Shown here piece by piece: positions 8,970 through 24,512 of a DNA stretch of 24,512 nt (within the stretch, counting starts at the first letter, position 1; each line of letters starts with the position of its first letter). The stretch lies in the UHGV virus genome UHGV-0105321; one strand, written 5' to 3'. The translations under genes were made by a program, and so were the position numbers. Below the pieces are notes generated by a model. That model was not told where the DNA came from, made no database searches, and worked only from the letters and a program-made list of their open reading frames with translations. The stretch comes from a virus.

Positions 8970-9197
8970 ATGCAAAATCTTGATGAGCCGATTAAAGGTG
9001 TCGGCATCCCTGAAGTTGCGAAGGCTTGTGGAGTTAGCGAAAGGGCTGTCTATAAGTGGCTCAAAAACGGCTTCCTCCCTAAGACTGAGTTTTTTGGGAA
9101 AACTAAATACGCATCAAAAATCGAAGAGATTTCTGGTGGCAAATATCAAGCAAGCGAAATGCTTGAAATAAGCAAAAAGAACCTTCTGGCTGCATAA
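8970..9197 (+). CDS. cro: Cro-like HTH regulator, 75 aa
   Basis: Divergent from cI across the operator region; HTH-like VAKACGVSERAVYKWLKNG; AAGGA ribosome-binding site. Confidence 0.75.
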   Translation: MQNLDEPIKGVGIPEVAKACGVSERAVYKWLKNGFLPKTEFFGKTKYASKIEEISGGKYQASEMLEISKKNLLAA

Positions 9198-9204
9198 GTA
9201 ACAC

Positions 9205-9250
9205 CGCTCTTTTCACAATGGACATTCGTCCTACGTCGCTGACAAAGCGA
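9205..9250 (+). promoter_or_regulatory. nutR: boxA-like CGCTCTTTT (9205..9213) and boxB hairpin UCGCU-GACAA-AGCGA (9236..9250)
   Basis: boxA-like element just after the cro stop; boxB stem-loop carries the same GACAA loop as nutL with a different stem. Confidence 0.65.
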
Positions 9251-9335
9251 GTCCCAAGATATCTGACCAACTAAGGCCATATGCGTTTCCACGCATACCT
9301 TTCAACTAGCTATTCACTATTGGAAATCATAAGAA

Positions 9336-9632
9336 ATGACACAAACAAGTTACAGCAAACTATCCCAGCGTGACGTTGATCGCGCAGAAACAGATTTACT
9401 CATCAACCTGTCAGCTCTGACGCAAAGGGGACTGGCAAAGATGATTGGCTGCCATGAATCGAAGGTCAGTCGTACCGACTGGCGATACATCGCGGCGATT
9501 TTATGCGCGTTCCAGATGGCATCTGATATCAGTCCGATCAGCCGGGCTTTCCAGCATGCCATTAACGTTCATGCAAATAAAAAACGTCCGGTTGGGGCCG
9601 GACGTTCTGAGCAAATCCTGATGAATATCTGA
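9336..9632 (+). CDS. cII: CII-like transcriptional activator, 98 aa
   Basis: C-terminal ...NKKRPVGAGRSEQILMNI resembles lambda CII ...NKKRPAATERSEQIQMEF; position after cro and nutR. Confidence 0.85.
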   Translation: MTQTSYSKLSQRDVDRAETDLLINLSALTQRGLAKMIGCHESKVSRTDWRYIAAILCAFQMASDISPISRAFQHAINVHANKKRPVGAGRSEQILMNI

Positions 9633-9697
9633 TATTCAGGCAGGGCATGGAGCAATACACGGGAATAATTCTGCCACATCTGGAAGAATTTCGCCAG

Positions 9698-9765
9698 CAA
9701 CAACACCAACCGCAGCAGCCTGAAGCCGATTGGGTTAACCCGGGAGATACCGGGACCGTCTGCGG
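9698..9765 (+). repeat. Direct-repeat copy 1 (about 68 bp) duplicating an internal segment of the downstream initiator gene
   Basis: CAACAACACCAACCGCAGCAGCCTGAAGCCGATTGGGTTAACCCGGGAGATACCGGGACCGTCTGCGG recurs at 10441..10521 with few substitutions and a 23-nt insertion. Confidence 0.75.
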
Positions 9766-9795
9766 TATGGAGTAAATCTTGTATGCGAGGGGACT

Positions 9796-10872
9796 ATGCG
9801 TAATTACGCAACAATTTCACCTCAGTTCTGGTTAGGCGATACAGGGCGAAAACTAAGGAAGTCTGGTCCGGAATGTATGGTAGTGGCGTTGTATATGATG
9901 ACCTCGCCTCATTCCAATATGCTGGGCCTTTATTACCTGCCTGTTTTGTACATTGCTCACGAAACCGGACTTGCTCCTGAAGGGGCTTCTAAGGGGCTTC
10001 AAATGGCTTGCGAGGCTGGTTTTTGCAGCTATGACCATGATTCTGAGGTTGTATGGGTGCATGAAATGGCAGCATGGCAGGTTGGTGAATCGCTGAAACC
10101 TGGCGATAACCGTTGTGCTGGGGTAAGAAATGAATATTCCGCGTTGCTGGAAAATCCTTTTTTATCATCCTTTTATGATAGATATAAGGATGATTTCCAC
10201 CTGGATGTCAGACGTGAATCATGTCGGAAAATTGAAGCCCCTTCAGAGCCCCTTTCAAGCCAAGAACAGGAACAGGAACAGGAAAGGGATAAAACCCTTC
10301 TGGTCCATGGCGAAAAAATCGCCACGGACCCACAGGGGGATTTTTGTCCTGTTCTGACTGAACGTCCAGGACCAGATGGCACGACACCGGAAGCAGATTC
10401 CGGGCGTTGTGTGCAGCAGGTGCTGATCGTCGAACCGGAGCAACAACGCCAACCGCAGCAGCCTGAAGCCGATTCCGCGATGAGCGGGAAGCCGATTGGG
10501 TTAACCCGGGCGATGCCGGGACCGTCTGCGGGACGAGTTGATTATCCTGACGTGTTCGAACGGGTCTGGCGTGAATATCCGCATCGGGCAGGGTCAAACC
10601 CGAAGAAATCCGCGTTCAATGCCTGGAGGGCCAGATTACGCGAAGGGGTGTCACCGGATGTCGTGCTGGATGGCGTGAGGCGTTACGCAAGATACCTGGA
10701 GGCTACCGGGAAAGCGGGAACTGAATTTGTTCAGCAGGCATCGACGTTTTTTGGCCCGAACAGGAATTTCGAAAATCCGTGGTCGCTGCCGAAGGCTGGC
10801 GCAGTCAGCCTGCGTTGCGTGAATCACATTTCTGAACCGGACACCGAAATTCCGCCGGGTTTCAGGGGGTAA
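9796..10872 (+). CDS. Putative replication initiation protein (O position, not lambda O-like in sequence), 358 aa
   Basis: Located between cII and a DnaC-like loader with good ribosome-binding site; contains QEQEQEQE and short reiterated DNA motifs. Function assigned by position only. Confidence 0.55.
   Translation: MRNYATISPQFWLGDTGRKLRKSGPECMVVALYMMTSPHSNMLGLYYLPVLYIAHETGLAPEGASKGLQMACEAGFCSYDHDSEVVWVHEMAAWQVGESLKPGDNRCAGVRNEYSALLENPFLSSFYDRYKDDFHLDVRRESCRKIEAPSEPLSSQEQEQEQERDKTLLVHGEKIATDPQGDFCPVLTERPGPDGTTPEADSGRCVQQVLIVEPEQQRQPQQPEADSAMSGKPIGLTRAMPGPSAGRVDYPDVFERVWREYPHRAGSNPKKSAFNAWRARLREGVSPDVVLDGVRRYARYLEATGKAGTEFVQQASTFFGPNRNFENPWSLPKAGAVSLRCVNHISEPDTEIPPGFRG
10441..10521 (+). repeat. 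Direct-repeat copy 2, inside the initiator coding sequence
   Basis: Matches 9698..9765; contains an internal GAAGCCGATT duplication. Confidence 0.75.
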
Positions 10873-10878
10873 TCAGCC

Positions 10879-11619
10879 ATGAAAAACATTTCGACAGGAG
10901 GGATTCTTGAACGGGTGCGCCGTCTGGCACCACCGCACGTGGCAGCACCGTTCCGGACGACCGACGAATGGCGGGAATGGCAACTGGCTGAGGGCCGGAA
11001 GCGCAGCGAGGAAGTTAACCGCCAGAATCACCAGACGCGGGTTGAAAAAATCCTGAATCGTTCGGGCATCCAGCCGCTTCACAGGAAGTGCTCATTCGGG
11101 AACTACCGGGTGCAGAACGACGGTCAGCGCCATGCTCTGAGCCAGGCGAAATCCATTGTCGATGAATTAATGACCGGTTATACAAACTTCGTGTTCAGCG
11201 GGAATCCGGGAACCGGAAAAAATCATCTGGCGGCGGCTGTGGGTAATCGTCTGCTGAAGGCCGGTAAATCCGTGATAGTGGTCACCGTGGCGGATGTGAT
11301 GAGCGCGTTACATGCCAGCTATGACGACGGACTGTCAGGGGAAAAATTTTTGCGTGAACTGTGCGAAGTGGACCTCCTGGTTCTTGACGAAATTGGCATC
11401 CAGCGTGAGACGAAAAACGAGCAGGTGGTACTGCACCAGATTGTTGACCGCCGGACGGCATCACTGCGCAGTGTCGGGATGCTGACAAACCTGAATCATG
11501 CCGCAATGAGCACGCTTCTTGGTGAGAGGATTATGGACCGGATGACCATGAACGGTGGTCGTTGGGTGAATTTTAACTGGGAGAGCTGGCGGTCAAACGT
11601 TGGACGTCAGGGTATGTGA
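10879..11619 (+). CDS. DnaC/IstB-like AAA+ helicase loader, 246 aa
   Basis: Walker A GNPGTGKNHLAAA and Walker B LLVLDEIG; follows the initiator gene with a 6-nt gap. Confidence 0.85.
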   Translation: MKNISTGGILERVRRLAPPHVAAPFRTTDEWREWQLAEGRKRSEEVNRQNHQTRVEKILNRSGIQPLHRKCSFGNYRVQNDGQRHALSQAKSIVDELMTGYTNFVFSGNPGTGKNHLAAAVGNRLLKAGKSVIVVTVADVMSALHASYDDGLSGEKFLRELCEVDLLVLDEIGIQRETKNEQVVLHQIVDRRTASLRSVGMLTNLNHAAMSTLLGERIMDRMTMNGGRWVNFNWESWRSNVGRQGM

Positions 11620-11644
11620 GAATTTTTGACGAGGTAAATTTTCG

Positions 11645-11842
11645 ATGGAAACCGTATTGCATGCACTGAAAGCGATGGGAAAAGCCAATTCTGTTGAACT
11701 GGCGGCGCGGCTTGATATCAGCCGTGAAGAAGTTCTCAACGAACTGTGGGAGCTCAAAAAAAATGGCGTTGTTGATAAAACGGGTCACACCTGGTTTCTG
11801 GCTGTCGAAGGTGAAGCCGGGGTACGGAGTATTCCCGTCTGA
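11645..11842 (+). CDS. Small winged-helix-like DNA-binding protein, 65 aa
   Basis: HTH-like segment [35 protein letters not shown] upstream of the ATG. Confidence 0.5.
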
Positions 11843-12074
11843 ACAGGCTCGTAAGGACTGGCAAAATGCCCGCAAAAAACTCTCAAGGGCAAAGTCGAAG
11901 AAACCGGTTGTCGTTGATCCAGACCTTATCCGGGCATTACCAGATGGGGAAATACGGCGCTACGACAGACGCTACAACACAATTTGTCGCGAGTGCCGTA
12001 ACAGCGAAACGATGCAGCGTGTGCTGGCATTCTGGCGAGGGAGTGCAGAGGGATTGATGTTCTCCCCGTCGTGA
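11763..12074 (+). CDS. Hypothetical basic protein (about 103 aa if started at ATG 11763); overlaps the preceding ORF in another frame
   Basis: Long ORF with protein-like composition; start unresolved (ATG 11763 after GGGAG, or GTG 11811); 80-nt out-of-frame overlap with 11645..11842. Confidence 0.35.
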
Positions 12075-12106
12075 ATGACGGGGGCTTACGTGTTCAGAAA
12101 AGTGAT

Positions 12107-12781
12107 TCATATAGAGGCTGAATCTGATCTTTTTTGTTCACGTCTGGCTTCCACTATTGCAGGCAGAGTGAAGGCGTAGACTAAAAACATTTCGGTAAAA
12201 CTCAGGATCTGGCTTGCCTCAATTGGTGTGAAAACTTCATCTGTATGAACTGCTTTATTGGCATCAATTCGTACAATATGAGCCCATTCCTTCATCTGTT
12301 CAGTGATCAGGCCTTTTTTGTAAATCATCTGAATACGTTGCGACAGCGATTCTTTTCCTGCTTCATCGCCGAGCAGTTTTTTCGTGGAGATATCGAGGAC
12401 TCTGCGACAAAGAATAACCACTGTGTCGTACCGCCTCCTCTGTAAATCCTCTTTTGCCTCAACAAAAGTACGGTCTGCAACCGGGGGCGTATATTCTGGT
12501 GCGGTAATTTTTTTGACCACAGGATAGATCTTGCGGAAACGGTACTGGCTATTTCCTGAAATCAGAATATCGAGGTCTTTTTTCTGGCTTTCCGCCATGG
12601 GGCCGTGATAGTGGTCTGATGGGATTTCAACAATAGCAACACCTCCTCGATGACAACTTCTGCATACAAAAGCGACGTTAAAAAAAGGTGTTTTTTCAAT
12701 TTGTTTTTCGGCAAATGCCTCAATAACAGCTCGCTCTTTTAAACAGTGCGGGCATGTGATATCAAAGGAGACTAAACCCAT
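12107..12781 (-). CDS. Zinc-ribbon plus DUF4145-like protein, 224 aa, counter-oriented to the flanking rightward operon
   Basis: N-terminal CPHC...CRSCH; C-terminal half has the pattern I associate with DUF4145 (…EWAHIVRIDANKAVH…); GAGGAA ribosome-binding site before ATG 12779..12781. Confidence 0.7.
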   Translation of the reverse strand: MGLVSFDITCPHCLKERAVIEAFAEKQIEKTPFFNVAFVCRSCHRGGVAIVEIPSDHYHGPMAESQKKDLDILISGNSQYRFRKIYPVVKKITAPEYTPPVADRTFVEAKEDLQRRRYDTVVILCRRVLDISTKKLLGDEAGKESLSQRIQMIYKKGLITEQMKEWAHIVRIDANKAVHTDEVFTPIEASQILSFTEMFLVYAFTLPAIVEARREQKRSDSASI

Positions 12782-13025
12782 GGATATTCCTCGCGAAATT
12801 AAAGAAATTAACGAAATCATTGAGGTTACTGATCGCCCCGAGTTTACCCTCATGCGCCGTTATGAAACAGGAACCGACGAGCAAAAATACATCATGGTTG
12901 CAGCATTGGCTGTGATGGCGATAGAAAGGGAGCGAAGGGAAAAGGACGTAATGGTTATTCCTGCGAGAAATGATTCACCGGATTTGAGATGGCAGGAGCC
13001 GGAGTGGGATGTGGTAATCCGGTGA
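12780..13025 (+). CDS. Hypothetical small protein, 81 aa from ATG 12780
   Basis: AAGGAG 9 nt upstream of the ATG; its start codon overlaps the divergent start of the DUF4145-like gene at a CATG. Could be spurious. Confidence 0.3.
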   Translation: MDIPREIKEINEIIEVTDRPEFTLMRRYETGTDEQKYIMVAALAVMAIERERREKDVMVIPARNDSPDLRWQEPEWDVVIR

Positions 13026-13079
13026 TTGATATTTCTCTGGGGTAAAGCGCCGCCAGAATGACGGCGCGGTAGTGGAGAG

Positions 13080-13388
13080 TTAAACGAAGCGGATCTGGAG
13101 TTTTTTCCCTGTAGCACGGGCGAATTTTTTCAGTGTGGCAAATGATGGGCCGCTTGTACCTGATGCAAGATTGCTTTCCATTCTGGTTATCGCAGTCGCT
13201 TTTGTTCCCATACGTTCAGCAACTTCAGCCTGGGTTAAGCCAGCTTCTTTTCGTGCTGCCAGCATTTCATCAAGTAGTGCGAATTCATCGGCGATGGCGT
13301 CGTATTCTGCTTTTACTGCGGGGTTAGACAACATTTTTTCTACCATTTCATCGTGTGTCATGGTAGGTGGGGTACGTTTACCAGTCAT
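13080..13388 (-). CDS. HTH (XRE-like) antitoxin of a HigA/Gp48 type, 102 aa
   Basis: HTH-like LTQAEVAERMGTKATAITRMESN; overlaps the upstream toxin ORF by 11 nt; toxin-then-antitoxin order. Confidence 0.72.
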   Translation of the reverse strand: MTGKRTPPTMTHDEMVEKMLSNPAVKAEYDAIADEFALLDEMLAARKEAGLTQAEVAERMGTKATAITRMESNLASGTSGPSFATLKKFARATGKKLQIRFV

Positions 13389-13707
13389 GCTTAACCTCCT
13401 TCATTCTGGTTTCAGCTTTTCTAAGCTCGGCAGGTGGAGTTTTTTGCGTTTTCTTTACAAAGCTATGCAACATAATGATTCGCTTTCCTTTTAGCGTGCA
13501 GTAAAAAACACGCCCTATGCCTTCCGAGCCCTTAAGGCGGATTTCAAACAAACCGTCGCCAAATGCCTCTGTATGCGGGGAACCAAGATTAGCTCCGTAA
13601 ATACGCATTTTCTCCGTGTACCGAATGTACCGGGCTTGTAAGGTCTCAGGAAGAGAAAGGATCTCAGCTTCAACCTCGTCACTGTAGTATTCGATAATGT
13701 AGTTCAT
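13378..13707 (-). CDS. RelE/HigB-like (Gp49-like) toxin, about 109 aa from ATG 13707
   Basis: Size and sequence character (…FGDGLFEIRLKGSEGIGRVFYCTLKGKRIIMLHSFVKKTQKTPP…) typical of HigB/Gp49-family toxins paired with a downstream HTH; palindrome AACAAATTTGTT in the promoter region. Start codon uncertain (13707 or 13719). Confidence 0.68.
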   Translation of the reverse strand: MNYIIEYYSDEVEAEILSLPETLQARYIRYTEKMRIYGANLGSPHTEAFGDGLFEIRLKGSEGIGRVFYCTLKGKRIIMLHSFVKKTQKTPPAELRKAETRMKEVKHDW

Positions 13708-13839
13708 GAGAGTAAACATAACAAATTTGTTATATACATTCAAGGTATGTTGACGACAACACATATCCGGGATTATATTCTTCGCACGCCAGCAAAATCT
13801 GGCGTCGGGATTAGCACCCCGGATATCGAAACGGTGCAT

Positions 13840-13861
13840 AACCGCGCTGGCGGTTTTTTTA
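13840..13861 (+). terminator. Intrinsic terminator (stem AACCGC/GCGGTT, loop GCTG, then T7); tR2-like
   Basis: Short GC hairpin directly followed by TTTTTTT on the plus strand, upstream of the nin region. Confidence 0.5.
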
Positions 13862-14024
13862 TGCGCTAAGCACAGTCACATTCGCGATTTATGGCGGGCT
13901 GTGTGGGGGAGCCGAAAGGCTCGCCGGATGTTTCGACCGGTAGTGCTAACCCCGCACAGTTCGCCACCACGATGATTAGCACCTGAAGGTGGTGAGGTAA
14001 AAATTATCGAAACGCGAGGTCGTT

Positions 14025-14699
14025 ATGACTGTTCAAATCTCTGTCAAAAACCTTTCCCCTGTTACCTATAACCAGATTCCGGTAATCACAACTGAGTTGC
14101 TTGCCCGCCTTTATGGAACAGAAACAATCCGTATACAGCAGAATCACCATGAAAATAAATCTCGGTTTATTGAGGGAAAGCACTTCTTTAAAGCTGTTGG
14201 TGATGAACTCAGAAATTTGCGACTAGTTTTAAACGAGTCGCAAAATGAGGTGAAAATCTCTCCCAAAACCCGCTCGCTCATCCTCTGGACAGAACGAGGC
14301 GCAGCCCGCCACGCAAAAATGCTAGAAACCGATCAGGCGTGGGAAGTGTTCGAAAAACTGGAAGACTGCTATTTCAGCCAGGGAAAAACAGCACCAACCG
14401 AACAGCAGCCGCAGATTCAGCCACAATTCACAGCCGAAGAAATCATCCTCCTTTGCTACATGCAACTCTGGATGGAAAAAGCCCAGGACCTTAGCAAGCA
14501 GCTGTACCCCATAATGAAAGAGCTGAACTCCTCATACACGAACAAGCTGTATGACATTGCGTTTGAGACCATCTACATGGTGACGAAGAACAGAGACGCG
14601 CTACTAAGGGAGGTAACACGTCTCGACATGTCAAGTTCCGTTATCCAGCGGGCCATGCCAATGCTGAAAAGCCTGCGGGCAAGACAATTTGAATTCTGA
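14025..14699 (+). CDS. Hypothetical nin-region protein, 224 aa, possibly antirepressor-like
   Basis: Well-formed ORF followed by a terminator; the N-terminal region weakly resembles phage regulatory/antirepressor N-terminal domains by eye. Confidence 0.45.
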   Translation: MTVQISVKNLSPVTYNQIPVITTELLARLYGTETIRIQQNHHENKSRFIEGKHFFKAVGDELRNLRLVLNESQNEVKISPKTRSLILWTERGAARHAKMLETDQAWEVFEKLEDCYFSQGKTAPTEQQPQIQPQFTAEEIILLCYMQLWMEKAQDLSKQLYPIMKELNSSYTNKLYDIAFETIYMVTKNRDALLREVTRLDMSSSVIQRAMPMLKSLRARQFEF

Positions 14700-14705
14700 A
14701 ACTAA

Positions 14706-14726
14706 AGGAGCTTCGGCTCCTTTTTT
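14706..14726 (+). terminator. Intrinsic terminator (GGAGC-TTCG-GCTCC followed by TTTTTTGTT)
   Basis: Perfect 5-bp stem, tetraloop, T-run, immediately after the stop at 14699. Confidence 0.6.
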
Positions 14727-14753
14727 GTTGGGAAAATCCAGTGAGAGGGAATA

Positions 14754-15164
14754 ATGAACCAGACTATCTTCCTCCGAAGTAAGCAGCAGCAACAATTCGC
14801 CATTAACGCCATCCTTGCAACAACTCTCGATAAAGACAAACCCGTTACGATCCGTATCACCGATTACAAGCGTAATCTCGCTCAAAATGCAAAATTTCAC
14901 GCGATGGTCGCTGATATATCCCGCCAGGTTAAGTGGTGCGGCAGGTGGCTAAAACCAGAACAGTGGAAAGTTTTGTTAATCAGCGGTCATGCCGTGGCGA
15001 CAAAACAGGAAGCTGATGTTTTGCCAGGTCTTGAAGGTGAATACGTCAATATCCGCGAAAGCAGTGCGCAGATGAGCGTGAAGCGTATGGCAAGCCTGAT
15101 TGAGTACACAACTTCCTGGGCTGTGGATCAGGGTGTCAGATTTACCGACAGGAGGTATGAATGA
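14754..15164 (+). CDS. ninB: NinB-like recombination protein, 136 aa
   Basis: Segment [32 protein letters not shown] resembles lambda NinB as recalled; first gene of a nin-type block. Confidence 0.75.
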
Positions 15165-15352
15165 GACGACAGCGACGAAGCATCACCGATATCGTCTGTG
15201 AAAACTGCAATTACCTTCCAACCAAACGCTCCCGAAATAAACCCAGGCCAGTCCCCAAAGAATCTGATGTTAAAACCTTCAACTATACGGCTCACCTGTG
15301 GGATATCCGGTGGCTAAGGCGTCGAGCAAGATTTAATTGTCACTCCGGATAG
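15161..15352 (+). CDS. ninE: NinE-like protein, 63 aa
   Basis: N-terminus [11 protein letters not shown]...C.NC.Y matches my memory of NinE-family proteins; start overlaps the ninB stop. Confidence 0.6.
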
Positions 15353-15372
15353 CCTACTGCATGAGGAATAAG

Positions 15373-15666
15373 ATGATGACAAACCTACGCAAAGAAGCGC
15401 GCGGCAGAGAATGCCAGGTACGGATTTACGGCGTATGCAATGGCAACCCTGAAACTACAGTTCTGGCGCATTACCGAATGGCTGGAATTTGCGGAACGGG
15501 AATGAAGCCTGACGACCTGATCGGTGCATGGGCTTGTAGTGACTGCCACGCGGAGATCGACCGACGCACCCGAATTCTCGACAACAACGACGCCAGACTT
15601 TACCACCTGGAAGGCGTGATCAGGACGCAGGCGATATTGCTGAAGGAGGGGAAGATTAAGTCATGA
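15373..15666 (+). CDS. YbcO-like (DUF1364) putative nuclease, 97 aa
   Basis: …LRKEARGRECQVRIYGVCNGNPETTVLAHYRMAGICGTGMKP…CSDCHAEIDRRT closely resembles the DLP12 YbcO family as recalled; GAGGAA ribosome-binding site. Confidence 0.75.
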   Translation: MMTNLRKEARGRECQVRIYGVCNGNPETTVLAHYRMAGICGTGMKPDDLIGAWACSDCHAEIDRRTRILDNNDARLYHLEGVIRTQAILLKEGKIKS

Positions 15667-16025
15667 ATGAATATGAGTTTGTGCTTCCCTGGCCGCCGAC
15701 GGTGAATACCTACTGGCGAAGACGGGGAAGCCAGTACTACATCAGCGATAAAGGCCAGAAATACCGAAAAGACGTACAGCAAATCATCCGGCAACTCAGA
15801 TTAGACATTTTCACTAAATCACGACTTCGCATCACAATTATTGCTGAACCACCAGATTCCCGCCGTCGCGACCTCGATAACATCCTGAAAGGTTTACTCG
15901 ACTCTCTTATCCACGCCGGATTTGCGGAAGACGACGAGCAATTCGATGACATTCGCGTAATTCGCGGCGTGAAAGTGCCTGGCGGTAGAGTGGGGATAAA
16001 AATCACCGAACTGGAGAACATATGA
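15663..16025 (+). CDS. rusA: RusA-type Holliday junction resolvase, 120 aa
   Basis: …FVLPWPP…NTYWRRR…RRRDLDNILKGLLDSLIHAGF…DD…I resembles RusA; start overlaps the upstream stop (ATGA). Confidence 0.85.
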   Translation: MNEYEFVLPWPPTVNTYWRRRGSQYYISDKGQKYRKDVQQIIRQLRLDIFTKSRLRITIIAEPPDSRRRDLDNILKGLLDSLIHAGFAEDDEQFDDIRVIRGVKVPGGRVGIKITELENI

Positions 16026-16222
16026 ACGCCACAATTCAAACAATACCGGAATTGCTTATCCAGGCACGAGGCAATATGACTGAAGTTTCACGAAAACTGA
16101 ACTGTAATCGTGCTACGGTCAGAAAATATGTCGGTGATAAAGAAGGCAAACGGCACGCCGTCGTCAACGGTGTCCTTATGGTTCATCGTGGATGGGATAA
16201 GGGGAAAGCTACTGATGCGTGA
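16022..16222 (+). CDS. ninH: NinH-like protein, 66 aa
   Basis: …TIPELLIQARGNMTEVSRKLNCNRATVRKYVGDKEGKRHAVVNGVLMVHRGW resembles lambda NinH as recalled. Confidence 0.7.
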   Translation: MNATIQTIPELLIQARGNMTEVSRKLNCNRATVRKYVGDKEGKRHAVVNGVLMVHRGWDKGKATDA

Positions 16223-16457
16223 TATTCAGCAGGTGCCTGAACGCATGGCTTTATTCAGGTCGTCTGGAAAAGCGCATGAGCAGCGTAATAGCGGAGTTCA
16301 TGGCGAAGAGTATATGAACAGATTATTCGAATGCTATATGAGACTGAAGCACGGAGATCGCTATGACCTGACATGTGATGCTGACGGTTTCTACTGCCGT
16401 GAAGTTGTGAAACGAATGTTTGAAGTGTGGTGTCATTGTAAAGGATGGGGGCTGTGA
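16215..16457 (+). CDS. Small Cys/His-rich protein, 80 aa; N-terminus MRDIQQVPER resembles the start of Q82/QuuD-type antiterminators
   Basis: ATG 16215 with purine-rich upstream; only the first 10 residues recall Q-family proteins; stop overlaps the next start (TGATG). Confidence 0.4.
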   Translation: MRDIQQVPERMALFRSSGKAHEQRNSGVHGEEYMNRLFECYMRLKHGDRYDLTCDADGFYCREVVKRMFEVWCHCKGWGL

Positions 16458-17071
16458 TGCGGCTAACCCCAGTATTCGGCATGGTTAACTTTATTAATGA
16501 TGCTCATTTCCGCCGCATATGGAGGCATCCGAAGAAAATCATTAACTCTCGTCAGAAAGCATGGGTTCACTACATGCTACAGGTATGGGGAAATGTTAAC
16601 GCTGGTGATGATTCTCCTTGTGGTGCAATTAACGTTATTGGGCGACTGATGATTCGCAGTCAGTGGAGCGATGACAAAGCTAAGCAGATTGAGTCTGTTG
16701 TCATGCGTCTGTATGAAGAAGACGGACTACGTGGAGATGAACTCCATCAGAAAGCCCGAGAACTGGTCATCCCTCAGTCATCGGCAGGTAATATCATTGC
16801 TCTCGCCAAAGAATCCGATGATGCTGCTTTCGTTGAACGTGTGATGGTTGAGACCTTTCATCGTGAAAGCCCTGTCCGTGATGTAGCTATTAGGCGATAT
16901 TGCAATCGCGACAGCACGCAAGATATCGCCAGGATGATTTCTCAGATAACAGGAGTTGATATTCAGTATTGCCGGAGGCGGGTCGTGTGGTGCGAGAGGG
17001 TCCTTGATTCAGAAATGTTTTATGCAATGAAGCGAGAATTGGAGAAAGAACTTCTAGTGATTGCTGGATGA
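16457..17071 (+). CDS. Hypothetical protein, about 204 aa, in the Q position (last gene before the late-promoter region)
   Basis: Translationally coupled to the preceding small ORF; followed by a terminator and promoter-like units. No recognisable lambda-Q zinc motif; function inferred from position only. Confidence 0.45.
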   Translation: MRLTPVFGMVNFINDAHFRRIWRHPKKIINSRQKAWVHYMLQVWGNVNAGDDSPCGAINVIGRLMIRSQWSDDKAKQIESVVMRLYEEDGLRGDELHQKARELVIPQSSAGNIIALAKESDDAAFVERVMVETFHRESPVRDVAIRRYCNRDSTQDIARMISQITGVDIQYCRRRVVWCERVLDSEMFYAMKRELEKELLVIAG

Positions 17072-17231
17072 TGCAAAATATTTTTTGTAAATGCGTTGCT
17101 TTCGAGAAATGAAAGTAGTATGTTTTGTGTATGCTCGGAGCAAAAGCGCACTGAGAAGCGAAAGAGAAATCCTGATTTACCTCGGTCGTCGATAATATTT
17201 AGGATCGGCATACTGGCTAGATTAGGTAAAG

Positions 17232-17260
17232 GCCTCGGCAGAAATGTCGGGGCTTTTTGT
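17232..17260 (+). terminator. Intrinsic terminator (8-bp stem with two G-U pairs, loop AGAAAT, then TTTTTGTTTG)
   Basis: Hairpin 17232..17253 directly followed by a T-run. Confidence 0.5.
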
Positions 17261-17581
17261 TTGCACAACAGGTAAGAGCATTGAACCCGCAGACCTCGTG
17301 GAATTGGTGAAAGGTGTGCGCAGTGCTCTTATCGTTGTGGTGAAGCTCAATGGCGAGCTAGCAGACAGGCGACTGTGAAAATACTAGTCATGTAGCGGAT
17401 CGCCGCGCGTATTGTAATCGGCAGCGCACCGATGGGAGCTGGTTCGATTCCGGCCGCCACAATCCAAACTGAGCCGTAGCCTCTGGGTGTCCTGAATTCA
17501 TCAGTGATAGTTACGCTGCGGCCTTCTACATACGATTTTTGTGAAAAGCGGGTGGCAAGAGGCTGCGAAATTTTTAAATAC

Positions 17582-17804
17582 CTCACAATTCCACAGCTTG
17601 ATGATTGTCTGGCTGCCGGAGAATTTGTTAAAAATTGCATCGCGTGGTGAATCCCCCTCAGCGGCGGGGCATCTGGCAAAGTGTATGATCCAGCGAACAT
17701 GCAAATTCAGTAGCCAGGCTGAATTTACCGGGAGGCACCTGGCACCATGCGACAGACAGAAATTAGGCTATACTTCAGCCCCTCTCCGGAGGGGCTTTTC
17801 TGTG
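17582..17804 (+). repeat. Late-promoter-like unit A: -35 TTGTCT (17605..17610), -10 TAAAAA (17629..17634), conserved hairpin, terminator hairpin 17777..17796 plus T-run
   Basis: Shares block-wise similarity with unit B (18051..18286), including the terminator AGCCCCTCTCCGGAGGGGCU and the motif CACCGGGAGGCACCYGGCACCATGC. Confidence 0.6.
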
Positions 17805-17990
17805 CAGGATGTGTCACAGTTTCCTGAATTCTGAGTACTGTCCTGTTACTCAGGGTGCTATATTTTCTGACGTGATGAAAGTCTGCCGGAAGGCGGAACG
17901 TATCGGAAATGACCCAGTAGAGAAAACGTTGACTCAGATACCGATGCTGAGTTACCGGGAAACCGGCATCACATGACCGCTATCCTTCCA

Positions 17991-18013
17991 GGCTCGCTCC
18001 GGCGGGCCTTTTT
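17991..18013 (+). terminator. Intrinsic terminator (GGCTCGC-TCCG-GCGGGCC followed by TTTTT)
   Basis: 7-bp stem with one G-U pair and a T5 run, between the two repeat units. Confidence 0.45.
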
Positions 18014-18050
18014 ACTGCAGAAAACAGTTTTCCCGTAAAATGCCACGTTA

Positions 18051-18286
18051 CTCACAATTCAGGCTGGCGATTATTGTCTGGCCAGCGGGAAGTTTGTTAA
18101 AAAAATATGGCATGGTGAATCCCCTGTGCGGAGGGGCATATCAGCGACAGGTGTTTGGTCACACCCCTTATCCTTTCTGGTGCGGGTTCAGGTGCTGATA
18201 CTGAACTCACCGGGAGGCACCCGGCACCATGCATGAACGGTACATAGCGCTACTCTCCAGCCCCTCTCCGGAGGGGCTTTCTTGTT
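18051..18286 (+). repeat. Late-promoter-like unit B: -35 TTGTCT (18074..18079), -10 TAAAAA (18098..18103), hairpin, terminator 18259..18286
   Basis: Tandem paralogue of unit A; identical terminator stem; compensatory substitutions in the internal hairpin (CCCCT...AGGGG versus CCCC...GGGG). Confidence 0.6.
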
Positions 18287-18290
18287 GGAT

Positions 18291-18319
18291 AAAAAAAAGC
18301 CCGCGCCGGGAAGCGCGGG
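18291..18319 (-). terminator. Minus-strand intrinsic terminator (stem CCCGCGC/GCGCGGG followed by U8), back-to-back with the unit B terminator
   Basis: A8 run then GC hairpin on the plus strand, which is hairpin plus U8 on the minus strand. Confidence 0.55.
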
Positions 18320-18520
18320 TGGCAAGGAATAAACAACAAAACGTGAAGTGATCAATTTTCAGCTGGCGAATAATACCCGACAGTAATCACTCTGCGCAAC
18401 TGTATGGTCTTTTTCGTATTGCGGGCTGTAGTCATCCTCCTGTTTCTGAACCCTTGTCCATGACTGACGTCAGCCCGCACCTTATCTTGATTGCATACAC
18501 TATCCCTGCCGGGAGGAATA

Positions 18521-18829
18521 ATGGCATTTAAACACTATGACGTGGTCAGGGCATCATCGCCGTCAGACCTCGCAGGAAAACTGACGCAAAAACTGAAGGA
18601 AGGCTGGCAACCCTATGGTAGTCCGATTATCTCAAACGCGGGTTATGGTGCTGAATTTATCCAGGCTATTATGGTTCCGGTGGACGAACGGATGCGAAGA
18701 GCTGGACAACATCCGATCGTAAAACCCACTTTGGTTCATGGGCGCGTCGCGGAATTATTTCCGACCGTCTGGCAACAGCCATTCTTCTGCATGTGGGCAG
18801 AGTGGCAGATTTTGTTTCCGGGAAAGTGA
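18521..18829 (+). CDS. DUF1737-like N-terminal domain ORF (MAFKHYDVV...), about 102 aa as written; probably part of a larger frame-disrupted gene
   Basis: GGGAGGA ribosome-binding site before ATG 18521; N-terminal sequence resembles the DUF1737 domain that I recall at the N-terminus of prophage NanS-p esterases; the ORF runs into an overlapping frame. Confidence 0.5.
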   Translation: MAFKHYDVVRASSPSDLAGKLTQKLKEGWQPYGSPIISNAGYGAEFIQAIMVPVDERMRRAGQHPIVKPTLVHGRVAELFPTVWQQPFFCMWAEWQILFPGK

Positions 18830-19587
18830 CAAAAGCCGCGGTTTCTTCAGGCGGAGGCGTATCGCAACCAGCACAGGAGAGTGGCGATACTCAGCCTGAA
18901 TCCGTTGTCCCGACAAAGATACAGTCAGTGCTGGCTTATGATGCGAATGCGGAAAATGCCGATCTGGCTTCGCAGGGCTGGACGCTGACAGATGTCAAAA
19001 ACACGCTGGTCAGTGACAGTGGTTCAGGTAAAAAAGCCCTTCGTCTTGAAAAACCAGAAAATGGTCTTGCACAGAAAAAGACCTGGAAAGTATCGCACGC
19101 AATTGATGCCGGTAAGGGGAAGGAGCTGTTCGATAACGGCGGTGAAATCACGCTGCGCTTTAAAATCCCCGATGATGTATCTCTCAATGCTTCTGCAAAT
19201 CAATATTCTGCGGGTATTTACTGGCGCGGTAGTGGATGGCCGGGAGCGGAATCAGAGGAGGGTTATATTGCGGCCTTCTATCTGCAGACTGATAAAACAA
19301 ACATCAATGTGATGTATCATGCAAACACCACATCACAGCGGCTTGGTAGTTATGGTCCGTTCGATCACGACTGGCACACGCTGACTTTCCGCTTCCCGGG
19401 TGGTGGCTCGCTGAACGTCACGCCGGTGCTTGATAATGCAGCAGGAAAACCGTTTACGCTGACCAGATGGACGAATGCAGCCTTTGAGGCCAACGCGCTG
19501 GCAATTACGGATATTACCGGAAATGCGGCAACTTACCCTGTGCTGATTGAAAGTCTTACTGTTGGTGTGAATGCCGTAGCAGCATAA
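18793..19587 (+). CDS. Beta-rich putative carbohydrate-binding-like domain ORF, 264 aa, with no in-frame ATG until far downstream; likely continuation of the DUF1737 gene after a frameshift
   Basis: Long ORF with protein-like composition (Gly/Thr/Asn-rich); track start is a GTG; overlaps the upstream frame over 18793..18829. Confidence 0.5.
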   Translation: MGRVADFVSGKVTKAAVSSGGGVSQPAQESGDTQPESVVPTKIQSVLAYDANAENADLASQGWTLTDVKNTLVSDSGSGKKALRLEKPENGLAQKKTWKVSHAIDAGKGKELFDNGGEITLRFKIPDDVSLNASANQYSAGIYWRGSGWPGAESEEGYIAAFYLQTDKTNINVMYHANTTSQRLGSYGPFDHDWHTLTFRFPGGGSLNVTPVLDNAAGKPFTLTRWTNAAFEANALAITDITGNAATYPVLIESLTVGVNAVAA

Positions 19588-19727
19588 CAGACGAAAAAAA
19601 CCGCCAGCAACAGGAATGGAGACTGGCGGAGGTAATCCCAATGGAGAATCTAACGAAAGGATGCTTTCGACATCAATCATTTCTAAATGAAAACAGTTCT
19701 CATTGTCAACAGTAACGGTAATAAACC

Positions 19728-19922
19728 ATGACATTCATCAACCAGTTAATGCTGTACTTCTGTACGGTGGTCTGTGTGTTGTATCTGCTTTCGGGTGGAT
19801 ACAGGGCAGTACGCGACTTCTGGCGCAGACAGATTGACAAAAGGGCCGCTGAGAAAATCAGCGCCACTCAGTCAGCCGGAGCAAAAACAGAAGCCCCACT
19901 CATTCCGGAACAACCTTCTTAA
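19728..19922 (+). CDS. Small membrane protein, 64 aa (one transmembrane helix then a basic segment)
   Basis: Hydrophobic stretch LMLYFCTVVCVLYLLSGGY; weak ribosome-binding site. Confidence 0.4.
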   Translation: MTFINQLMLYFCTVVCVLYLLSGGYRAVRDFWRRQIDKRAAEKISATQSAGAKTEAPLIPEQPS

Positions 19923-19947
19923 TAACCCCTTTCAACGAGAAAATCTC

Positions 19948-20238
19948 ATGACAGATATAAAACAACTGGTCACTGCTGAGGCAGTGAAGGAAGTCATTCG
20001 CTCTGAAGAAGTCAGAAGCGTCCTGAAACAAAAACTCCGCCAGAATCTGGAAGAGCGTCTTGATGCAGAAGTGGATTCAATTCTGGATGAATTGCTTGGT
20101 GCACAGCCGGAACCATCCCCGGAACTGCTTCCGGAACCACAGGCGGAAGATGTCACCACGGAAAATGGTGATATTCAGCCGGAGTCACCGGTGACGGATA
20201 TGACAGACACACAACCCGAACCGGGCACAATGCTGTAA
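19948..20238 (+). CDS. Acidic hypothetical protein, about 96 aa from ATG 19948
   Basis: ORF ends just before a strong terminator at 20250..20281; weak ribosome-binding site; Glu/Pro-rich C-terminus. Confidence 0.4.
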   Translation: MTDIKQLVTAEAVKEVIRSEEVRSVLKQKLRQNLEERLDAEVDSILDELLGAQPEPSPELLPEPQAEDVTTENGDIQPESPVTDMTDTQPEPGTML

Positions 20239-20249
20239 CGGCGGGGCAG

Positions 20250-20281
20250 GGCCATCAGTAAAACACTGATGGCCTTTTTTA
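20250..20281 (+). terminator. Strong intrinsic terminator (9-bp stem GGCCATCAG/CTGATGGCC, 7-nt loop, then T6)
   Basis: Perfect inverted repeat 20250..20258 / 20266..20274 followed by TTTTTT. Confidence 0.7.
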
Positions 20282-22281
20282 TTTCCGGTAGCACAGGTCT
20301 GTCGGGGCGGGGATATGTATCAGATGGAAAAAATATCAACGGGCATATCCAGGTGGCAACCTCATTCCGTTCAGGTACGGTGCAGCGCCTGCATATCTCA
20401 GAGCACGGCAAAATTTGCGCAAAATATCCGGCTAAGGCGAAAGAACTGCGAACCGGTACACTTAATGCCGTCTCTGATGAGTGCATTATTTTTGATGAAT
20501 CCACTGCTGAAGGTGTGGGTGGCGATTTTTACGAGATGAGTACCGTTGATGGTGTTCTGGGTATGGAGGCCAAAACGCGGACTGATCTGTTGGTGATATC
20601 AGATGATCCTGATGATGAAACAGAAAAACTGGCTGAAGCTATTAATGCTGAATTTGCCGATGCTTGCCGCCTTGGAAATATGAATAAAGCCCGTTCTGAT
20701 GCCTATGCGGAACAAATCAAAGCGGGGCTCAGCTGGGTGGAGGTCAGACGGAACAGCGATCCGTTCGGGCCTGAGTTTAAGGTGTCTACTGTCAGCCGGA
20801 ATGAAGTGTTCTGGGACTGGCTCAGCCGGGAGGCTGATTTAAGTGACTGCCGCTGGCTGATGCGCCGCCGCTGGATGGATACCGATGAGGCAAAAGCCAC
20901 ATTTCCGGGAATGGCTCAGGTTATCGATTATGCCATTGATGACTGGCGTGGTTTTGTCGATACCACGGTTACTGAAGGCCAGCCCAGTCCGTTGATGAGT
21001 GCATGGGAAGAGTATCAGTCATGGGATCGACAGCAGAACGAATGGCTTCAGCGTGAACGCCGTCGTGTGCTGCTTCAGGTGGTTTATTACCGTACATTCG
21101 AGCGTCTTCCGGTGATTGAACTCAGTAATGGACGGGTGGTGGCCTTTGATAAAAATAATCTGATGCATGCGGTGGCTGTGGCATCCGGGCGGGTGCAGGT
21201 GAGAGTCGGGCGGGTAAGTCGTATTCGTGAAGCCTGGTTTGTGGGACCGCACTTTATTGTGGATCGCCCCTGCAGTGCGCCGCAGGGGATGTTCCCGCTG
21301 GTTCCCTTCTGGGGATACCGGAAGGATAAAACCGGGGAGCCTTACGGGCTGATTTCCCGGGCCATTCCGGCACAGGATGAGGTGAATTTTCGTCGTATAA
21401 AACTGACGTGGTTGCTTCAGGCCAAACGCGTGATTATGGACGAGGATGCCACCCAGTTGTCAGACAACGATCTGATGGAGCAGATCGAGCGTCCGGATGG
21501 CATTATTAAACTGAATCCGGCCCGAAAAAATCAGAAAAGCGTTGCTGATGTTTTCCGGGTTGAACAGGATTTTCAGGTTGCCAGCCAGCAGTTTCAGGTC
21601 ATGCAGGAGTCGGAAAAACTTATCCAGGACACGATGGGGGTTTATTCCGCATTTCTCGGGCAGGATTCAAATGCATCGTCCGGCGTGGCGATCAGCAACC
21701 TGGTGGAGCAGGGAGCCACAACCCTTGCCGAAATCAACGATAACTACCAGTTTGCCTGCCAGCAGGTGGGAAGGCTGTTGCTCGCTTATCTTCTTGATGA
21801 CCTGAAAAAGCGGCGTAATCATGCGGTGGTGATTAATCGCGATGATCGTCAGCGTCGCCAGACCATTGTCCTCAATGCTGAAGGTGATAATGGTGAACTG
21901 ACCAATGATATTTCAAGGTTAAATACACATATTGCGCTGGCTCCTGTTCAGCAGACACCGGCGTTTAAGGCACAGCTTGCACAGAGAATGTCAGAGGTTA
22001 TTCAGGGGCTGCCGCCTCAGGTGCAGGCTGTTGTGCTCGATCTGTGGGTTAATCTTCTGGATGTGCCGCAGAAACAGGAATTTGTCGAACGTATTCGTGC
22101 GGCGCTGGGGACGCCAAAATCACCGGATGAGATGACTCCGGAAGAGCAGGAAGCGGCAGCACAACAGCAGGCGCTGGAGCAACAGCAGGCAGAACTTCAG
22201 ATGCGCGAAATGACAGGCCGGGTGCGTGAGGCATTTCGCCGTCGTGTTGCGGAGACTGAACAGCATGGCGGAACTGACTGA
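20269..22281 (+). CDS. Large late-region structural protein, up to 670 aa, with portal-like character (tentative); true start unresolved
   Basis: Uninterrupted frame ending in a Gln/Ala/Glu-rich helical tail (…EEQEAAAQQQALEQQQAELQ…) as seen in portal proteins; the annotated 5' end overlaps the terminator hairpin and no in-frame start has a good ribosome-binding site. Confidence 0.5.
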   Translation: MAFFISGSTGLSGRGYVSDGKNINGHIQVATSFRSGTVQRLHISEHGKICAKYPAKAKELRTGTLNAVSDECIIFDESTAEGVGGDFYEMSTVDGVLGMEAKTRTDLLVISDDPDDETEKLAEAINAEFADACRLGNMNKARSDAYAEQIKAGLSWVEVRRNSDPFGPEFKVSTVSRNEVFWDWLSREADLSDCRWLMRRRWMDTDEAKATFPGMAQVIDYAIDDWRGFVDTTVTEGQPSPLMSAWEEYQSWDRQQNEWLQRERRRVLLQVVYYRTFERLPVIELSNGRVVAFDKNNLMHAVAVASGRVQVRVGRVSRIREAWFVGPHFIVDRPCSAPQGMFPLVPFWGYRKDKTGEPYGLISRAIPAQDEVNFRRIKLTWLLQAKRVIMDEDATQLSDNDLMEQIERPDGIIKLNPARKNQKSVADVFRVEQDFQVASQQFQVMQESEKLIQDTMGVYSAFLGQDSNASSGVAISNLVEQGATTLAEINDNYQFACQQVGRLLLAYLLDDLKKRRNHAVVINRDDRQRRQTIVLNAEGDNGELTNDISRLNTHIALAPVQQTPAFKAQLAQRMSEVIQGLPPQVQAVVLDLWVNLLDVPQKQEFVERIRAALGTPKSPDEMTPEEQEAAAQQQALEQQQAELQMREMTGRVREAFRRRVAETEQHGGTD

Positions 22282-22828
22282 TTTTTTACCGTATGTCCGT
22301 CGCCATATCAGTGGTCCGCTGAACATTATGATGACGGATGCGTTATCCATGTCGGCAGTGGCATTCTGCCGTCAGTCCCTGTTGTGCCGCCGTGAAGCCA
22401 CGCTGTCACCGCCAGCCGGAGAGGACTGTGTGCTGCCATATGACGCGGAGAATGAAGAGTGCGTACATATTATTCGTATCCTCGCTGACGGGCGTGAGCT
22501 TTTTGCCGGTCATGATGTGGAAATCCGCCCGGGGCGGGTAATGCATTTTGCCTGTTCGCCCGGAGAGGTGAGTGTGCTTTATGCCGTTGCTCCGAAAGCA
22601 GGGAGCCGTCAGGTGCAGGATGAACTGCGGGCATGGTCTGAAGAAGTGGCTGCAGGGGCGCTTGAACGGTTGTTCATGCAGACCGGGGTTTCATGGTCAG
22701 ACCCGTCGCGCGCACAGTATTTCTCTGTGCTGTTTTCTGAGGGTATCCGTCGGGCATATCGCGACACACTGGCGACAAGTCCGTACTCCTCATACCGCAA
22801 TCCTGTCCGCAGACAAAGGTTTTACTGA
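22265..22828 (+). CDS. Hypothetical late protein, about 187 aa from ATG 22265
   Basis: GGAG upstream; overlaps the end of the large ORF by 17 nt; stop overlaps the next start (TGATG). Confidence 0.55.
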   Translation: MAELTDFLPYVRRHISGPLNIMMTDALSMSAVAFCRQSLLCRREATLSPPAGEDCVLPYDAENEECVHIIRILADGRELFAGHDVEIRPGRVMHFACSPGEVSVLYAVAPKAGSRQVQDELRAWSEEVAAGALERLFMQTGVSWSDPSRAQYFSVLFSEGIRRAYRDTLATSPYSSYRNPVRRQRFY

Positions 22829-23478
22829 TGACGACGATTACTGAAATCATCGGACGAGTGAACACGCAACTGGTTGACCCGATGATGGTGCGCTGGCCTC
22901 TGGCTGAGCTGTGTGATTATTACAATGATGCTGTGCGGGCGGTGATTCTGGCAAGGCCGGATGCAGGCGCAAGTCTGGAGACGCTGAATTGTGTTCCTGG
23001 TGCACGTCAGACTTTGCCTGATGGCGCAATACAGCTTCTTGACGTGATATGCCTCAGCGATGGCAGTGCTATAAAACCGCAATCCCGTGAGGTGCTTGAT
23101 GCACAGTATCCCGACTGGCACATGCTGAGGGGGAAACCGGAATGCTTTATCAGCAGTGACCTTGCCCCGCGCGTGTTCTGGCTGTTTCCGGCACCGGAGG
23201 AGGCTGTGAGTGTTGATGCTGTGGTCAGCCGCATTCCGGAGGCGGTGTATGTTCTGACGCAGGATGATGACACGCCTGTACCGCTGGAAGAGGCTTATGT
23301 TAACCCGCTGGTTGACTGGATGTTGTTTCGTGCATTCAGCAAGGATGCAGCCGGTGGTGCAGAGTCAGGACTGGCAGCACAACATTATCAGAGTTTTGTT
23401 GAGCAGCTCGGGATTAAACAGGGTGCAGACAGTGCATTGTCTGCCCGCAAGAAGGTGTTTAACGGAGGTGGAATGTGA
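22828..23478 (+). CDS. Hypothetical late protein, 216 aa
   Basis: ATG coupled to the upstream stop; stop overlaps the GTG start of the tail fiber gene. Confidence 0.6.
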
Positions 23479-24512
23479 GTGTTGTTGTTTCGGGGACGCT
23501 GAAATCTCCTGATGGTGAGGCGATATCAGGCGCAAATATTACCCTGACGGCGCTGACAGTTTCACCGGATGCGCTCAGCGGCACCAGTGCGTCAGCAGTG
23601 ACTCGTGACGGCGGGTATTACGGAATGACGCTGGAGCCGGGGGAGTATGCGGTTTCTGTGACGGTGAAAGGGAAGACTGCTGTCTACGGACGTGTGCGTA
23701 TTGAGGGGACTGAAAGTACGGTGACGCTCAATATGCTGTTACGCCGCAGTCTTGTTGAGGTGAGCATACCCGGAGAACTGCTGACAGATTTCCGGCAGAT
23801 ACAGAACAATGTGGCGGATGACCTTGCCACGATTCGTCGTCTGAACGAAGACACGGCGGTGAAAAATAATCAGGCTTCACAGTCGAAGGAAAGCGCTGCT
23901 GCCAGTGCGAAGACTGCATCAGAAAGCGCGAAGGCTGCGACCAGCAAAGCGACGGAGTCTGCACAAAAAGCCAGTGAGGCTGCAGAGGCGGCGACCCGGG
24001 CAGGTGAGTCTGAAAAGGCAGCGGCAGCTGACGCTAAAGAGGCCAGACAACATGCTGAAACCGCCAGAGTGGCTCAGGAGGCCGCCGGAGACGTTCTTAA
24101 ACGTGCTGAGGCTGCTACAGTTAGTGCTGAAGAAGCCAGACGTATGGCTGAGAATGCACGAGGACCTAAAGGCGATACAGGGCCGAAAGGTGATGCTGGT
24201 CCTCGTGGTGAAACAGGTCCGGCGGGTCCGCGTGGGGAGAAAGGTGAGCAGGGAGAGCGCGGACCTCAGGGCATACCGGGCCAGAAAGGTGATACAGGAG
24301 AACGGGGACCTCAGGGAGTGCAGGGGCCAGCTGGCCCACGTGGTGCGACCGGGCCACAGGGAGCAATGGGGCCGCGTGGTGAAACCGGGGCCAGAGGCGA
24401 AAAAGGAGACCCGGGGGGGCCTCAGGGACCAAAGGGGGATGCTGGTCCGAGAGGTGAGCCGGGGCCGAAAGGTGACACCGGCCCACGTGGAGAGGCCGGA
24501 CCACCCGGACCA
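23475..24512 (+). CDS. stf: Side tail fiber (Stf-like) protein, N-terminal 346 codons; continues beyond the window
   Basis: GTG start after GGAGGTG; N-terminus [27 protein letters not shown]... resembles lambda Stf (MAVKISGVLKDGTGKPV...); Ala/Ser/Glu-rich coiled segment, then collagen-like Gly-X-Y repeats from about 24166 to the window end. Confidence 0.85.

Follow-up and report, generated by a model that had tools for sequence, protein, structure and literature searches.

Late operon of an Escherichia coli lambdoid prophage gutted by four deletions

The window analysed here is the whole stretch of 24,512 nucleotides of the virus genome UHGV-0105321, an entire metagenome contig (ENA ERZ1303586 NODE_1213; short-read assembly, 13x coverage) covering a lambdoid prophage's early and regulatory regions and a part of its late one. 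We consider it highly probable (roughly 93%) that the element is an ordinary defective (cryptic) prophage, a non-Stx member of the short-tailed Stx-type phages, whose late operon has been gutted by four deletions. Aligned at base level with the intact prophage of E. coli JNEC-KY204 (L001), its late region is the intact sequence minus four clean blocks, 9,680 bp altogether. An earlier sequence-only reading had found no holin, endolysin or Rz gene, no terminase and no capsid gene between Q (about 17071) and the tail fiber gene (23475), and the gene and Pfam tables bear this out. The features that it listed there, a DUF1737 gene, two small open reading frames (ORFs), a terminator, a portal-like ORF, two further ORFs and stf, all lie where it placed them. 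The phenomenon is already known, in a known phage family, and is documented here with unusual precision.

Deletions in the late region

Among 5,426 complete E. coli genomes searched with megablast, 16 cover positions 16400-24512 at 99-99.8% identity, and in each of them the match is split into 5-6 pieces over about 17 kb. The late region resolves into five blocks colinear with intact prophages (95.8-100% identity). L001 served as the late-region reference and the G1/2 prophage (L002) as the reference for the whole window.

The gene order in L001 is Q-like, nanS-p-type SASA esterase (657 amino acids, aa), DUF1378, DUF826, class II holin, lysozyme, two small ORFs, Rz, Rha, a 268-aa TerS (PHROG 370), TerL (568 aa; PHROG 2), portal (714 aa), a 335-aa protein (PHROG 479), an N4-gp56-family major capsid protein, three small head proteins, adaptor and tail fiber. 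The identities of the lost genes are backed by Pfam and PHROG matches on L001 (holin, Phage_lysozyme, Rz, Rha, P22_portal and Phage_capsid_3/N4-gp56 capsid), while Pfam gave no match for the intact TerS and TerL of the relatives. A Walker-A pattern search of the intact TerL found no classical motif either, so a "Walker motif" is no useful test for this terminase family. For the window, the gene and Pfam tables list no called gene with a domain of a holin, lysozyme, Rz, terminase or capsid protein. DUF826 and the tail fiber gene are 12.0 kb apart in L001 and 3.2 kb apart in the window, so missing annotation does not account for the lack of lysis, packaging and capsid genes. The sequence-only reading had expected more than 15 kb of such genes here, which overstates what this phage type carries (about 12 kb in L001).

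The intact late region is shared with isolated phages. It is 98.5-99.1% identical to that of PhiR5_2 and PhiR12_3 (61,979 bp), its 12.8 kb match many Stx2a-converting phages at about 90% identity over 97% of its span, and 171 phage records match the intact module over at least 80% of its span. A literature search on PhiR12_3 and PhiR5_2 found nothing relevant.

The leftmost of the four late deletions, J1 (18667-18669; 907 bp lost, TAT microhomology), lies in the nanS-p esterase gene and produces a frameshift. It removes esterase residues ~50-393, including the entire SASA domain (residues 83-274 of the 657 in L001). Two remnants are left, both on the plus strand like all the late-region features described here: an N-terminal one (18521-18829) in which some 50 native residues (DUF1737) run into an out-of-frame tail, and a C-terminal one (DUF6645; 18793-19587) that is 98.9% identical to L001 nanS-p residues 394-657 and is detached from its own start.

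J2 (20346-20347; 3,955 bp lost, TA microhomology) extends from holin codon 12 through TerL residue 153 and takes the rest of holin, lysozyme, the two small ORFs, Rz, Rha, TerS and TerL 1-153. The first 11 codons of holin S remain (20315-20347, ending at J2), and the native holin start (20315) now begins a 74-codon junk ORF. J3 (20541-20542; 1,283 bp lost, TA microhomology) removes TerL residues 219-568 together with portal residues 1-77. Up to J3 there remains an internal terL fragment of 197 bp (20346-20542; residues 154-218) that is 100% identical to L001 11810-12006. With J4 (22222-22224; 3,535 bp lost, GTG microhomology), portal residues 639-714 are gone, as are the major capsid protein, the 335-aa PHROG 479 protein encoded ahead of it, a virion protein of 130 aa and, from a 153-aa protein, residues 1-133. 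The portal core (20541-22224, ending at J4) retains residues 78-638 of 714.

Of the lysis cassette, only the 11 holin codons are left, with lysozyme and Rz falling within J2. TerS is wholly gone, TerL is reduced to residues 154-218 of 568, and the capsid gene lies within J4. By the essential-gene test for a defective prophage, lysis, packaging and head genes have thus been removed in comparison with functional relatives. The sequence-only reading had proposed an internal deletion leading to a cryptic prophage; this holds at base resolution against relatives 99-100% identical, except that four deletions were found and not one. It had also allowed for lysis or packaging genes inside the surviving ORFs, where we found only the 65-residue TerL fragment and the 11 holin codons and hence no such gene.

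A further junction, J0 (11823-11824; 788 bp lost relative to the G1/2 prophage, TA microhomology), lies in the early region. It runs from about codon 60 of DUF1627 into DUF977, truncates both genes and creates a 65-aa ORF (11645-11842) in which DUF1627 is fused to DUF977. All junctions join colinear sequence with 2-3 bp of microhomology, without insertion sequence (IS) elements, inserted bases or inversions.

The 670-aa ORF at 20269-22281, which had been read as portal-like, does match P22_portal (E=7.5e-110; residues 92-653 against profile positions 54-585 of 594), but it is not a single portal gene. It is an in-frame fusion of three gene fragments, from TerL, the portal and a head protein. 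Its ATG falls inside a terminator hairpin, ahead of the holin start and in a different frame from holin, and its residues 1-26 are not native coding sequence. Residues 27-91 equal TerL 154-218, residues 92-650 equal portal 78-638, and residues 651-670 are the final 20 residues of the 153-aa PHROG 482 head-module protein. The 670-aa "portal protein" called by automatic pipelines is accordingly a three-gene fusion artefact that merits annotation as a pseudogene.

Recurrence of the junctions and integration site

The identical junctions were found again in about ten independent assemblies, from metagenomes or isolates, two NCBI genome assemblies among these. In an exact-protein index, the chimeric protein was found in 5 public contigs, and the J1-specific 102-aa ORF and the J0-specific 65-aa ORF in 9 contigs each. 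Human-gut-type metagenomes assembled in different ways (MEGAHIT, SPAdes-type, scaffolded, Logan) supplied the carrier contigs, and on direct comparison their junctions matched those of the window at 100% or nearly 100% identity. The whole deleted lineage also has a nonsense codon in common (Q188*; 5213-5215, in the ORF 5063-5776 on the minus strand) that cuts a 237-aa early-region protein to 187 aa and serves as a lineage marker. Lineage contigs were fetched via this 187-aa allele; a look-up with the Bet protein matched only other genomes. Of the two NCBI assemblies, GCA_029113065.1 carries the J1 ORF and GCA_027984225.1 the Q188* ORF. An exact 37-mer across J3 had no match in GTDB species representatives, JGI metagenomes or IMG/VR, which are simply without this lineage.

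The joins are not assembler-made, since they overlap by only 2-3 bp, far below any assembler k-mer. They are real and inherited.

Scaffold_64 of ERZ28596679 (170.7 kb) carries J0-J4 and continues leftward through bet-exo-DUF4222-int (387 aa, intact)-ynfG' (truncated)-ynfH-dmsD-clcB. The ynfG site is also used by intact relatives. Judged from this arrangement, the element is a chromosomal prophage at E. coli ynfG with an intact integrase. Only exo, DUF4222, int and host genes lie to the left of the window, and in intact relatives only tail and adhesin genes lie beyond the tail fiber. A complete morphogenesis module in normal order immediately outside the window, for which the sequence-only reading had left room, is excluded, because in intact relatives it sits between DUF826 and the adaptor, both of which are inside the window.

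Sister lineages and stepwise decay

Sister contigs carry further deletions, so the decay was stepwise. A contig of ERZ15609685 (L007), 99.98% identical to the window, has J1-J3 and lacks J0, its DUF977 being intact. Its final deletion (J4', L007 10715-10718) is larger and also takes the 187-aa gene and two-thirds of the adaptor. With regard to J4 and J4', either one site broke on two occasions or a second deletion took the old junction as its exact starting point. In L033, the contig of the isolate assembly GCA_027984225.1, identity to the window is 100%, but a further 1,234 bp reaching from kil into recE are deleted (at L033 1752-1759, corresponding to window 2886-4119), with an 8-bp microhomology, TGACCCGG. 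This kil-recE junction is of the classic slipped-mispairing type, unlike the junctions with TA.

Scaffold_64 has the same five junctions as the window and is 100% identical to it over 9190-16505. Its immunity block (KilA-N/BstA, a 237-aa CI and a 66-aa Cro) is unrelated to that of the window at 6407-9189, which encodes a 206-aa ORF, a 144-aa ORF, DUF3024, a 235-aa S24 repressor and a 75-aa HTH protein, while the flanks of the block are 99-100% identical between the two. Unrelated immunity blocks combined with the same junctions imply that recombination (immunity swap) continued after the deletions. J0 is found in identical form in contigs only ~87% identical to the window (L016, 3426-3623; L019, 825-1022) and is thus an old allele circulating in the lambdoid pool and not a private event. 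J1, J2 and J3 never occur apart in any contig long enough to tell.

If L033 and scaffold_64 came from different hosts, transfer of the defective element would follow; their 75 mismatches are a bet/exo recombination patch and the host flank has 1 mismatch, giving no evidence either way. The window, L007 and L033 form a natural series of decay stages in which the rate and mechanism of E. coli prophage inactivation could be studied.

Deletion mechanism

Microhomology of at least 2 bp occurs at all five junctions, for which simulation with random break points gives p ~1e-4. The deletions probably arose by illegitimate recombination, either through microhomology-mediated end joining after breaks or through replication template switching. 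The microhomology contains TA at four of the five (TA at J0, J2 and J3; TAT at J1); when random deletions are simulated in the intact prophage, only 3.7% of the junctions whose microhomology reaches 2 bp or more contain TA. To their left, J0 and J3 have GTA|ACCG in common, and both create GTAC. A transposon or site-specific origin of the TA junctions was tried and rejected as unsupported, as the eight break sites have no common 4-mer and no IS or recombinase gene is present at the junctions. A short terminal inverted repeat (TAACCG...CGGTTA) is present only in the stretch lost at J0. The TA bias offers a modest, testable clue to how illegitimate recombination works.

Evidence against a cryptic prophage and alternative explanations

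Several observations weigh against our interpretation or are left over by it. Defective prophages of O157 can still be released via prophage-prophage interactions (PMC2669165). Junction-spanning queries for carriers or intermediates found J0-J4 in 0 of the 5,426 complete E. coli genomes, so that all the evidence comes from short-read assemblies. All contigs break within the tail fiber gene, three assemblies at or within ~70 bp of the window end in collagen-like repeats, so that the right end, the distal tail genes and attR lie beyond the assembled sequence. Given microhomology of at least 2 bp, TA at four or more of five junctions has p ~9e-6 (~1e-4 allowing for 16 dinucleotides), which generic microhomology joining does not predict; nor does it predict left break points for J4 and J4' that are no more than 2 bp apart. 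The TA excess and this shared break point mean that the deletion mechanism is not fully explained.

The lack of junctions in complete genomes is what an assembly artefact would leave, with gaps arising from chimeric joins of related prophages or collapsed repeats and no real deletions behind them, and the window is itself a short-read metagenome contig at 13x from a species whose strains often harbour several related lambdoid prophages. An artefact of this kind is nevertheless highly improbable: it would have to produce, from overlaps well under assembler k-mers, the same junctions in different samples under four kinds of assembly (MEGAHIT, SPAdes-type, scaffolded and Logan) and in two NCBI assemblies, and the ERZ15609685 contigs carrying the two halves of the element are equally covered (27.1x versus 27.5x). 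The persistence of the deleted form in about ten samples would suit a satellite, or an element becoming one, that is, a helper-dependent parasite that keeps regulation, adaptor and tail fiber on purpose and is packaged by a related intact Stx-type phage. It retains int, the immunity region, replication genes, Q, adaptor and tail fiber, and co-resident prophages can mobilise defective O157 prophages (PMC2669165). We consider this very improbable. What remains are colinear leftovers of a full-size phage, to which they are 99-100% identical, and they include useless fragments (197 bp of terL, a portal without residues 1-77 and 639-714, a frameshifted esterase). From int to the contig end the element measures at least 26 kb, against roughly 7-20 kb for a compact dedicated element. 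The TerS gene and its flanks, where the pac region is expected (by position only, pac being unmapped in this phage type), are deleted, and the gene and Pfam tables hold no capsid-remodelling, capsid-redirecting or helper-interference genes. L007 has already lost most of the adaptor, which argues against selection for keeping it. The suggestion of a satellite-like element in the sequence-only reading therefore does not hold, and the same applies to its suggestion of an unfamiliar structural module, in which a complete set of lysis and morphogenesis genes would be hidden in unannotated ORFs. Q, the 187-aa ORF and, in relatives, TerS and TerL do lack Pfam matches, but every ORF is a known gene, or a fragment of one, from the head/adaptor module of short-tailed Stx-type phages, and intact relatives need 12 kb of extra genes at exactly these junctions; the chance of a hidden module is practically negligible.

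A different kind of alternative accepts the deletions and concerns their origin. J1-J3, and perhaps J0, could stem from one TA-preferring process, such as serial template switching in a single episode of replication or repair, or an enzyme that cuts, rejoins and crosses over at TA. The TA bias itself, the GTAC created at both J0 and J3, the near-coincident left break points of J4 and J4', the fact that J1-J3 were not found separately in sufficiently long contigs, and the fragments staying colinear and in the same orientation all fit such a process. We nonetheless think it unlikely: beyond NTAN itself the eight sites have no motif in common, neither transposon ends nor a recombinase gene lie at the junctions, the history of J0 is distinct (87%-identical backgrounds; missing in L007), the later deletions of the lineage are non-TA (TGGC or TG; TGACCCGG), and the pattern was noticed post hoc in a sample of five. 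An extension of this idea, which we regard as improbable, is that the deletions are the footprint of a TA-preferring process that disarmed the lytic module in one or a few steps, after which the disarmed element spread among gut E. coli by recombination; spread by recombination is suggested by the occurrence of the same junctions with different immunity modules. Signs in favour of the TA-preferring footprint are TA at four of the five junctions, the break point used again in J4 and J4', and the recurrence of J0 in phage backgrounds of only 87% identity to the window.

Consequences for the element

For the cryptic prophage that we favour, the missing genes would have direct consequences. Without holin, endolysin and spanin, no lysis would be expected; without TerS and TerL, and with a portal lacking both ends, no packaging; and without the capsid protein, no heads. 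The esterase is presumably dead. An element that cannot lyse, package or build heads would be inherited vertically as a cryptic prophage.

The repressor, Cro, CII, the replication and recombination genes, the toxin-antitoxin pair, the antirepressor, Q and int all look intact. The element should therefore still confer immunity and may excise or replicate upon induction, which would be a dead end unless complemented. Interplay with co-resident prophages can keep a defective lambdoid prophage biologically active (PMC2669165). The element may likewise still offer recombination functions, the toxin-antitoxin pair and stretches of homology at which incoming relatives could recombine. Selection probably favoured losing the lytic functions, as this takes away the cost of induction; selection against that cost is the standard explanation for the preferential loss of lytic genes (PMC6379469).

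Remaining genes of the late region

The Q-like antiterminator (16445-17071) is intact and matches PHROG 753, "anti-termination protein Q-like" (E=3.5e-68), with no Pfam match; its block is colinear with L001 at 95.8% identity. In Stx phages, tRNAs (ileZ/argN/argO-type) and stx occupy the spacer between Q and nanS-p. In the window this spacer is colinear with the non-Stx relative L001. A tRNA scan of it found 0 tRNAs, and no stx operon is present downstream of Q. The spacer holds only two tandem-spaced copies of the small RNA STnc100 (Rfam RF02076), at 17612-17805 (138.7 bits) and 18081-18289 (129.8 bits), which fill it and each end in a terminator-like hairpin.

Downstream of the esterase remnants are two intact genes, one for a DUF1378 small membrane-type protein (19728-19922; PF07125, E=7e-36), annotated alike in relatives, and one for a DUF826 protein (19948-20238; PF05696, E=8e-25). 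They are followed by a terminator-like hairpin (20248-20276) with a 12-bp stem and then a T-run. This hairpin is native to the phage, where it lies just upstream of the holin gene, and falls within a block 99.3% identical to L001.

To the right of J4, a 187-aa virion structural protein (22265-22828; PHROG 437, E=6.7e-76; no Pfam match) is intact and corresponds to L001 18547-19110. The head-to-tail adaptor (22828-23478) is intact as well (SU10 adaptor, PF24175, E=8.8e-32; PHROG 399) and is annotated as "phage adaptor protein" in L001. The 5' part of the tail fiber gene (23475-24512) has the Pfam domains phage_tail_N, CarboxypepD_reg and Collagen, and the contig ends within its collagen-like repeats.

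Early region

The early genes of the window are bet, gam, recE, kil, N, the S24 repressor, a Cro-like gene and CII. After CII come O-like and DnaC-like replication genes, DUF4145 and a Gp49/HTH toxin-antitoxin pair, then an isrK/C4-controlled ORF6N antirepressor, ninB, ybcO, rusA, ninH and Q. The toxin-antitoxin pair (13080-13839, minus strand) comprises a 153-aa toxin of the Gp49/HigB type and a 102-aa HTH antitoxin and is intact, as is the adjacent DUF4145 gene (12107-12853). Both are candidate accessory or defence cargo that may help to explain why the defective element is retained.

Directly upstream of the antirepressor gene (ORF6N/P22_AR_C; 14025-14699) are isrK (13786-13860), the c4-a1b1 target and the C4 antisense RNA (13887-13971). 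The module at 13773-14699 is a P1/P7-style antisense-controlled antirepressor inside a lambdoid prophage.

Comparison with known systems

The closest relatives of the element, PhiR12_3 (PV340552), PhiR5_2 (PV340546) and the JNEC-KY204 and G1/2 prophages, have the same late backbone (98.5-100% identity) and gene order as the window, and group and element share the ynfG site and integrase. Relative to them, the window lacks 9,680 bp in four late blocks and 788 bp in the early region, has Q188* and differs from some in its immunity module. The Stx2a- and Stx1a-converting phages of the 933W and Sakai Sp5 type have the same family of head/lysis module, with a P22-like portal, an N4-gp56/Phage_capsid_3 capsid and an SU10-type adaptor, and carry a nanS-p-type esterase downstream of Q as the window lineage does. 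The window differs from them in lacking stx and the tRNAs between Q and the esterase, and in that its lysis/head module is mostly deleted. The odd late region is thus a clean negative, being neither a new phage organisation nor a satellite, and its history can be read base by base.

The K-12 prophages DLP12, Rac and Qin are defective lambdoid prophages of the same sort. Lambdoid prophages with multiple defects are well known from E. coli (PMC2669165; PMC6379469). The Sp prophages of O157 Sakai are likewise lambdoid prophages fixed in the chromosome, where deletions and point mutations have cost them lytic or morphogenesis functions but left genes for regulation and recombination as well as accessory genes (PMC2669165; PMC6379469). 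Compared with such defective E. coli prophages, the element in the window is at a young stage of decay, its flanks being 99-100% identical to functional phages, and no IS is involved. Its small clean deletions are clustered in one operon, and its sister lineages stand at different steps.

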